A stretch of DNA of 64,000 nucleotides. Source: Escherichia coli. GTDB lineage: Bacteria > Pseudomonadota > Gammaproteobacteria > Enterobacterales > Enterobacteriaceae. Location of the stretch: the NCBI RefSeq assembly GCF_045037415.1, contig NZ_CP173438.1; one strand, written 5' to 3'. Both the position numbers and the translations under genes were made by a program. This document shows positions 59,843-61,188 of this stretch, in pieces; position 1 is the stretch's first letter; the number at the start of each line of letters is the position of its first letter. Below the pieces are notes generated by a model, which made no database searches, was not told the DNA's origin, and worked only from the letters and a program-made list of their open reading frames with translations.

Positions 59843-60754
59843 GTGAGTACATTAGAACAAACAATAGGCAATACGCCTCTGGTGAAGTTGCAGCGAATGG
59901 CGCCGGATAACGGCAGTGAAGTGTGGTTAAAACTGGAAGGCAATAACCCGGCGGGATCGGTAAAAGACCGTGCGGCGCTTTCGATGATTGTCGAGGCGGA
60001 AAAGCGCGGCGAGATTAAACCGGGTGATGTGCTGATCGAAGCCACCAGTGGTAACACCGGCATTGCGCTGGCAATGATTGCGGCGCTTAAAGGCTATCGC
60101 ATGAAATTGCTGATGCCCGACAACATGAGCCAGGAACGCCGTGCGGCGATGCGTGCCTACGGTGCAGAACTGATTCTGGTCACCAAAGAACAGGGCATGG
60201 AAGGCGCACGCGATCTGGCGCTGGAGATGGCGAATCGCGGCGAAGGAAAGTTGCTCGATCAGTTCAATAATCCCGATAACCCTTACGCCCATTACACCAC
60301 TACCGGGCCGGAAATCTGGCAGCAAACTGGCGGGCGTATTACCCATTTTGTCTCCAGCATGGGAACAACCGGCACTATCACCGGCGTGTCACGCTTTATG
60401 CGCGAACAATCCAAACCGGTGACCATTGTTGGCCTGCAGCCGGAAGAAGGCAGCAGTATTCCCGGCATTCGCCGCTGGCCTGCGGAATATCTGCCGGGGA
60501 TTTTCAATGCTTCTCTGGTGGATGAGGTGCTGGATATTCATCAGCGCGATGCGGAAAACACCATGCGCGAACTGGCAGTGCGGGAAGGGATTTTCTGCGG
60601 CGTAAGCTCCGGCGGCGCGGTTGCCGGAGCACTGCGGGTGGCAAAAGCTAACCCTGGCGCGGTGGTGGTGGCGATCATCTGCGATCGTGGCGATCGCTAC
60701 CTTTCTACCGGGGTGTTTGGGGAAGAGCATTTTAGCCAGGGGGCGGGGATTTAA
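59843..60754 (+). CDS. cysM: Cysteine synthase B (O-acetylserine sulfhydrylase B)
   Basis: 303 aa from GTG start, (M)STLEQTIGNTPLVKLQRMAPDNGSEVWLKLEGNNPAGSVKDR. Confidence 0.97.
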   Translation: MSTLEQTIGNTPLVKLQRMAPDNGSEVWLKLEGNNPAGSVKDRAALSMIVEAEKRGEIKPGDVLIEATSGNTGIALAMIAALKGYRMKLLMPDNMSQERRAAMRAYGAELILVTKEQGMEGARDLALEMANRGEGKLLDQFNNPDNPYAHYTTTGPEIWQQTGGRITHFVSSMGTTGTITGVSRFMREQSKPVTIVGLQPEEGSSIPGIRRWPAEYLPGIFNASLVDEVLDIHQRDAENTMRELAVREGIFCGVSSGGAVAGALRVAKANPGAVVVAIICDRGDRYLSTGVFGEEHFSQGAGI

Positions 60755-60756
60755 GA

Positions 60757-61188
<432 letters not shown>

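Follow-up and report, generated by a model that had tools for sequence, protein, structure and literature searches.

The compact cysM-yfeK junction of a B2-like Escherichia coli and the apparent gain of yfeS in the K-12 lineage

The 64,000-nt stretch of Escherichia coli DNA that was analysed here (the window) contains cysM, the gene for cysteine synthase B, and yfeK in convergent orientation with almost abutting stop codons (Table 1). The former is the terminal gene of the cysPUWAM cluster, collinear with the order cysP-U-W-A-M in K-12, and is 95.0% identical in DNA sequence to K-12 cysM over 912 nt. The two proteins share the same C-terminus (HFSQGAGI*) and a sequence identical to that in the window is annotated as cysM by PGAP in strain SK1144. 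In position, full length and sequence identity, this ORF is the ortholog of CysM from K-12. The ORF on the opposite strand is a member of the YfeK family (DUF5329), with matches to Pfam PF17263 (E=1.8e-31; 108.7 bits, cut-off 27) and to NCBIfam NF007646 (279 bits, cut-off 171), the latter extending over residues 1-122 of 122. A signal peptide is predicted, and YfeK would thereby be a small exported DUF5329 protein, encoded by a gene with a putative sigma-E-type promoter. At 122 aa it is shorter by 2 aa than K-12 YfeK (124 aa), from which it also departs at a few positions; its start codon (61123-61125) is GTG in the window and ATG in K-12. A PADLOC search with YfeK gave no match to a defence system.

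Table 1. Features at the cysM-yfeK junction, with positions in the window
Feature	Position	Strand	Basis and remarks
cysM (cysteine synthase B)	59843-60754	+	ORF call, 303 aa; ends GGG ATT TAA
cysM stop codon TAA	60752-60754	+	sequence
C-rich, G-poor rut-like tract immediately past the yfeK stop	60682-60756	-	antisense to the cysM 3' end
Spacer GA between the stop codons, 2 nt	60755-60756		sequence
Site matching the insertion point of the K-12 yfeS cassette, empty site TAAGATTATTGCGCAGG	60755-60766		BLAST breakpoints and alignment of empty and filled alleles
yfeK	60757-61125	-	ORF call, 122 aa, GTG start, ends ...TVPAQ*; monocistronic here
yfeK stop codon, TTA as read on the + strand	60757-60759	-	sequence
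Palindromic hairpin, 11-bp stem, 12-nt loop	60759-60792	both	inverted-repeat search and folding
Sigma-E-type promoter match GAAACTT-N16-TCAAA	61159-61186	-	regular expression; upstream of yfeK

The coordinates and a consensus scan agree with the original prediction, made from the sequence, that the two stop codons are 2 nt apart with no canonical terminator between them. The scan identified no terminator-like sites in the segment 60300-61300 (shuffle mean 1.1) and no promoter-like sites in the same segment (shuffle mean 0.9). A search for RNA families around the junction yielded two matches and nothing else: one to REP/naRNA4, below the threshold and upstream of cysM, and a spurious one to mir-23. 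The former is located on the minus strand of the cysA-cysM spacer (59788-59820; 30 bits, E=0.009) and corresponds to a single REP-like hairpin.

The 2-nt spacing is annotated in the same way by PGAP/RefSeq in SK1144 and in 7 further, diverse strains of E. coli. No variation was seen in the junction string TTTAAGATTATTGCGCAGG among the 7 diverse E. coli genomes examined. Among single strains, FCI29 has a spacer of 3 nt, and the empty site of Z1323CEC0013 carries the K-12-like end TTCCGCAGG, so that YfeK terminates in PAE*. Near-abutting convergent stop codons are routine in E. coli since eutR (plus strand, 46630-47682) and hemF (minus strand, 47688-48590) converge with a spacer of 5 nt in the window, as they do in K-12, where the spacers of 12 convergent pairs in 100 kb range from 5 to 239 nt. 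Both eutR/hemF and cysM/yfeK are thus convergent core genes with stop codons in close proximity (5 and 2 nt, respectively), but it is only at cysM/yfeK that a presence/absence polymorphism was seen here.

The gene order in the K-12 record NZ_CP152467.1 is cysM, a 188-nt spacer, yfeS (244 aa, annotated as a 'WGR domain-containing protein'), a 32-nt spacer, yfeK (124 aa) and pdxK. The statement in the original prediction that K-12 has yfeS between yfeK and cysM was thus correct, and the gene is indeed not in the window: the BLAST alignment of the window to the K-12 locus extends to position 60759 and resumes at 60760-60763, breakpoints between which 958 bp of K-12 sequence with yfeS within it are skipped. 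The flanking genes and their orientations are the same in both, the DNA identity of cysM and yfeK is 94-95%, and a match to a sigma-E-type promoter is located upstream of yfeK in each. What K-12 has in addition is the 958-bp segment (a BIME and yfeS), including the REP-containing spacer of 188 nt between cysM and yfeS, whereas the window has the 2-nt spacer, no REP and a longer hairpin stem. The GC content of the K-12-only segment is 40.5%, as compared to 56% for cysM and 53% for the window.

We refer to this segment as the cassette. It covers about 952-958 bp, from just past the cysM stop codon to the yfeK stop codon. Its first part is a REP pair (BIME), after which comes yfeS, with the same orientation as yfeK. 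An exact 8-bp direct repeat, GGATTAAT, bounds the cassette at positions 2034 and 2986 of the K-12 locus, 952 bp apart, and the insertion turns the C-terminus of YfeK from PAQ*, as in the window, into PAEGN*.

To quantify how common the two arrangements are, we searched 5426 complete E. coli genomes with a junction query of 801 bp, and scored the junction as contiguous if at least 80% of the query was covered in one place. A contiguous cysM-yfeK junction was present in 4038 of these genomes (74%) and the query was split in the remainder, with the reservation that complete RefSeq genomes are a biased sample, rich in laboratory derivatives of K-12 and BL21 and in clinical B2 strains. Alleles with a contiguous junction range in identity to the window from 93.8% to 100%. 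The K-12-only segment was present at a coverage of at least 80% in 1381 genomes, about a quarter; outside the cassette locus only its REP part gave matches, at about 40 places per genome. The representative genome for E. coli in GTDB has the 2-nt spacer, a YfeK protein ending in PAQ* and no yfeS. The junction of the window is thus the ordinary, already annotated and majority arrangement in E. coli.

The same arrangement is seen outside the species. Pseudocitrobacter faecalis has a 2-nt spacer (GT), a YfeK protein ending in PAQ* and no yfeS, and there is likewise no yfeS in Enterobacteriaceae UBA5654, in which the spacer is 7 nt, or in Citrobacter amalonaticus and a Superficieibacter sp., in which the spacers are 37-38 nt. 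Reference genomes in which cysM and yfeK are normally adjacent, which had been named as evidence that would speak against yfeS being a gene missing from the window, were thus looked for and found, both in E. coli and in outgroup genera, and this argues that yfeS is a gain of the K-12 lineage. The compact junction is apparently ancestral, with yfeS inserted in the K-12 lineage, a polarity that is the reverse of the one originally suggested.

We consider it highly probable that the window displays the unoccupied, ancestral cysM/yfeK boundary and that the K-12 lineage gained yfeS by horizontal transfer. As a conjectural part of the same explanation, the convergent transcripts may end by means of a hairpin and, for yfeK, Rho. 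In such a scenario, K-12 and about a quarter of the sequenced E. coli strains would have horizontally acquired a REP/BIME element together with yfeS at this boundary. The insertion would have moved cysM and yfeK 958 bp apart, altered the last residues of YfeK and placed yfeS second in the yfeK operon, while nothing would have been deleted from the boundary in the window. Most E. coli, including the B2-like strain of the window, would accordingly be those that retain the compact ancestral boundary. More generally, absence relative to K-12 is not the same as loss, and at the cysM/yfeK site it is K-12 itself that appears to be derived.

The cassette is not restricted to E. coli. A Pseudocitrobacter metagenome-assembled genome (MAG) contains the same cassette at the same site (L008, 3367-4319) and shares with K-12 the BIME, the boundary repeats and the PAEGN* end of YfeK. 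The DNA identity between this MAG and K-12 is 95.9% for yfeS, as compared to 89.6% for cysM and 80.3% for yfeK. Since the flanking cysM and yfeK genes have diverged further between the two genera than the cassette has, the latter is, to judge from these comparisons, horizontally transferred. Within E. coli, about 180 genomes contain yfeS alleles that are 95-99% identical to the K-12 allele. A second E. coli allele of the cassette is exemplified by strain EC0026B (L027), in which yfeS is 97.3% identical to that of K-12 and a 16-bp indel follows the BIME. Since these alleles are only 95-99% identical to K-12, the arrival of yfeS was not very recent, and some of the strains without yfeS could have lost it secondarily.

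How the cassette arrived is a separate question. One explanation is that insertion at the cysM/yfeK boundary is targeted and that yfeS with its BIME is a small non-autonomous mobile element that generated an 8-bp target duplication. The exact 8-bp repeat at both ends of the cassette in K-12, EC0026B and the Pseudocitrobacter MAG fits this explanation, as do the excess similarity of the cassette across genera and the presence of other low-GC inserts at the site in Escherichia albertii and Superficieibacter electus, which have rewritten the C-terminus of YfeK each time. Yet neither terminal inverted repeats nor a transposase or integrase is present in the K-12 cassette, the sole domain match of which is WGR, and it is confined to one locus per genome in the 5426 complete E. 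coli genomes, in which only the REP part is repeated. The copies of GGATTAAT at the two ends of the cassette are exact. The empty site as it exists today (TAAGATTATTGCGCAGG; GATTATTGCG) does not correspond to one plain copy of this repeat, and chance accounts for a further 7 exact repeats of 8 bp in that 1 kb. Because the ends of the genes by the junction are highly conserved between genera, ordinary homologous recombination would be sufficient for the spread of the cassette. We therefore regard targeted insertion as unlikely. Of the features expected of a transposable element or MITE, terminal inverted repeats, a transposase and multiple genomic copies are all absent from the cassette.

We also searched for a site that contains a single copy of the repeat. 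A synthetic query with one copy of GGATTAAT and the PAEGN* end had no full-length exact match in the 5426 E. coli genomes, and the best full-length matches were to the ordinary empty site of 141-142 nt. A first scan of metagenomes for the single-repeat site gave 0 matches, and a looser pattern gave 3 chance matches, in unrelated contigs of 34-38% GC without cysM or yfeK.

The other inserts at the site are of different content. In E. albertii NBRC 107761, an unrelated insert of 1.84 kb with a GC content of 32-38% is located at the cysM/yfeK site (L012, 3331-5150). It contains two ORFs, one of 280 aa without a Pfam match and one of 175 aa with a weak match to DKNYY, and has rewritten the end of YfeK to VELKNK*. 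This insert was found in none of the complete E. coli genomes searched. In S. electus, 534 bp are present at the same site. It is conceivable, but rather doubtful and a little less probable than targeted insertion of the yfeS cassette, that the boundary is a recurrent micro-hotspot for small low-GC cargo at the same few nucleotides, with the C-terminus of YfeK being rewritten each time and, in the case of yfeS, with a duplication of 8 bp. If so, there would be site-directed insertion without a recognisable recombinase, perhaps tied to the biology of REP/BIME elements or to the palindrome found there. Pan-genome analyses of the Enterobacteriaceae, such as those of the type made by Oliveira, Touchon and Rocha, provide the general concept of integration hotspots between conserved core genes. 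Like these hotspots, the cysM/yfeK interval contains different low-GC cargo in different lineages (yfeS in E. coli and the Pseudocitrobacter MAG, the two-ORF insert in E. albertii), but unlike them its cargo is 0.5-1.8 kb in size, consists of 1-2 genes and has no integrase, tRNA or features of phages or ICEs.

The reading behind the original prediction was that ancestral E. coli had yfeS and that a clean deletion removed it in the lineage of the window, in line with a streamlined chromosome. K-12 does contain yfeS, the window is without several other K-12 genes as well, yfeS alleles within E. coli diverge by up to about 3-5%, and the 8-bp direct repeat that flanks the K-12 segment could mediate its loss. 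However, recombination between the two copies of GGATTAAT would leave a site with TAAGGATTAATTTCCTTCCGCAGG, which is absent from all 5426 complete E. coli genomes, and the sequence of the empty site is common to the window and to P. faecalis. The low GC content of the cassette (40.5%), its similarity across genera in excess of that of its flanks, and the occurrence of the yfeS-less state in 74% of the genomes and across divergent alleles also speak against a deletion, and we find this explanation very improbable. That the junction is an artefact of assembly or annotation, for instance through the collapse of a repeat or an error in calling a stop codon, had no evidence in its favour and can be dismissed with near certainty, as an identical sequence and annotation is present in thousands of independent complete genomes and neither ORF is truncated relative to its family.

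The gene that was apparently gained in the K-12 lineage encodes a protein of two domains. The AlphaFold model of YfeS from K-12 (L001, 2222-2956) has a pLDDT of 95.9. Its N-terminal WGR domain has 2ra8 as its best match in the PDB and weakly resembles the WGR domains of PARP2 and PARP3, and a structure search with the all-helical C-terminal domain gave no significant match in the PDB. Relatives outside the locus are 55-58% identical and were found in unrelated contexts in Paenibacillus, Dysgonomonas and Clostridium. The uncharacterised two-domain family of the YfeS type has a patchy distribution, with members in Firmicutes, Bacteroidota and a few Enterobacteriaceae.

Three suggestions about the origin or role of yfeS were considered and discarded. 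As an anti-phage defence gene it had no match in PADLOC, and the model consists of the WGR domain and the unmatched helical domain. For a phage origin, the phage records gave only weak Listeria matches, over the C-terminal part. For a plasmid origin, a single E. coli plasmid with a paralog of 70% identity was found. This plasmid, NZ_CP098226.1, is 50 kb in size and non-mobilizable, and the YfeS paralog that it carries (L041, 4001-4702; 70% amino acid identity) is unannotated in PLSDB. The sole phenotype found in the literature for a yfeS deletion in K-12 is sensitivity to boric acid (PMC11502571). The gene is thus of interest as an uncharacterised WGR-domain gene that was probably acquired horizontally and placed in the sigma-E-controlled yfeK operon of K-12.

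In K-12, yfeK and yfeS are reported to form an operon under the sigma-24 promoter yfeKp (PMC11502571). The sigma-E-type match in the window agrees with this report and would here drive the expression of yfeK alone. Because no spacer separates cysM and yfeK, the transcript of each would be expected to end inside the other gene, and the junction offers two candidate signals for termination, the hairpin and the C-rich tract.

The hairpin begins 5 nt past the cysM stop codon and spans the yfeK stop and the last 10 codons of the gene. On the plus strand its minimum free energy is -16.3 kcal/mol (z=-3.76), and none of 200 shuffled sequences folded as well; on the minus strand the value is -14.0 kcal/mol. 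The hairpin thus has the GC-rich stem-loop of an intrinsic terminator but not the U-tract, on either strand: the sequence just past the stem is UAACGCAUG on the plus strand and AAUCUUAAAUCC on the minus strand. It is because there is no U-tract that the hairpin was not called in the terminator scan. E. coli and P. faecalis both retain the hairpin, although the insertion has shortened it in K-12, and Escherichia sp. E1V33 lacks it. Only two natural variants of the stem were observed, too few for an analysis of covariation; both pair on the plus strand and one of them loses a pair on the minus strand. Since the hairpin sits in the coding sequence of yfeK, its conservation may be explained by constraint on the protein alone. 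The junction in E1V33, which is without yfeS, is even tighter than that of the window: the coding sequences of cysM and yfeK have 12 nt in common (TCA AAT CCC TGA; L005, 1417-1428), and a deletion has removed the left arm of the hairpin.

Over the 75 nt that follow the yfeK stop codon, the C-rich tract has a C/G ratio of 2.0, which places it in the 98th percentile of 75-nt windows across the 64 kb. In composition it suits the loading of Rho on the yfeK transcript. Rho acting on this tract, just past the stop codon, would likely finish the yfeK transcripts, and the hairpin could serve as a 3' stem-loop shared by both transcripts, be it as a bidirectional terminator without a U-tract, as a point of pausing or collision for RNA polymerase (RNAP), or as a protector against 3'-exonucleases. 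In K-12, the BIME may act as an insulator in place of the hairpin.

In a preprint on E. coli, stem-loops position head-on collisions of RNAP at bidirectional terminators between convergent genes (Wang et al., bioRxiv 10.1101/2022.10.23.513370). A recent preprint lists 704 convergent pairs in E. coli and 306 predicted bidirectional terminators, with REPs in about 30% of the convergent spacers. The cysM/yfeK stem-loop resembles the bidirectional or RNAP-collision terminators described by Wang et al. and by Ju et al. 2019 in that one palindromic stem-loop at the boundary would serve both transcripts. Unlike those, it is located inside the coding sequence of yfeK, has a loop of 12 nt and has no flanking U/A tracts. 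The junction represents a natural test case for how transcription terminates at convergent genes without a spacer.

The original prediction further placed the absence of yfeS in a pattern of missing K-12 genes, pointing to a distinct lineage or to an unusually streamlined chromosome. The first of these alternatives was borne out in that the lineage is not that of K-12: the junction is 100% identical to that of SK1144 and 99.9% identical to that of BEN2908, and Nissle 1917 and ATCC 11775 have the same cysM/yfeK junction as the window. Because SK1144, BEN2908, Nissle 1917 and ATCC 11775 are strains of phylogroup B2, we infer that the strain of the window is B2-like. The pattern held to the extent that hyf, yfeW/pbp4b and murR are also absent in a synteny map. 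It did not hold as a single class of four junctions: the yfeS-less state is in the majority and the corresponding K-12-only DNA is foreign-looking at 40.5% GC, whereas the other three are minority states, present in 19-23% of the genomes and typical of B2-like strains, and the corresponding K-12-only DNA is of native GC content. Nothing points to streamlining, the yfeS-less state being the apparently ancestral majority.

The minority junctions were counted in the same 5426 genomes. Where K-12 has the 13.8-kb hyfABCDEFGHIJR-focB segment, the window has about 40 bp (7610-7651), with yfgO and bcp on either side; the hyf-less junction is present in 1126 genomes and the K-12-only DNA has a GC content of 53.8%. 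The loss of hyf in the F/G/B2 lineage has already been published (PMC6896753). At 52218-52259, pbp4b/yfeW (1.4 kb) is absent between murP and yfeX, a state seen in 1272 genomes (K-12-only DNA 52.0% GC); in SK1144, PGAP calls a small 'hypothetical protein' at this junction. The gene murR (0.87 kb), which encodes the repressor of murQP, is absent at 54758-54806 while murQ and murP are kept. The murR-less junction was found in 1047 genomes, and the K-12-only DNA there has a GC content of 51.6%. The absences of hyf, yfeW and murR look like losses in the B2-like lineage. That of murR looks like the loss of a regulator, which would predict derepressed catabolism of MurNAc in the lineage of the window.

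Distinguishing the gains in K-12 (yfeS and the CPZ-55 prophage) from the losses in the other lineage (hyf, pbp4b and murR) forestalls a false account of streamlining. Among further differences, 140 bp of the ucpA-cysP spacer of K-12 is absent from the window (55781-55784). The eutA and eutB genes are contiguous (43099-43121) and the eut operon is intact, with no copy of the 6.75-kb CPZ-55 prophage (intZ to yffS) that splits this operon in K-12; like yfeS, CPZ-55 is a gain on the K-12 side.
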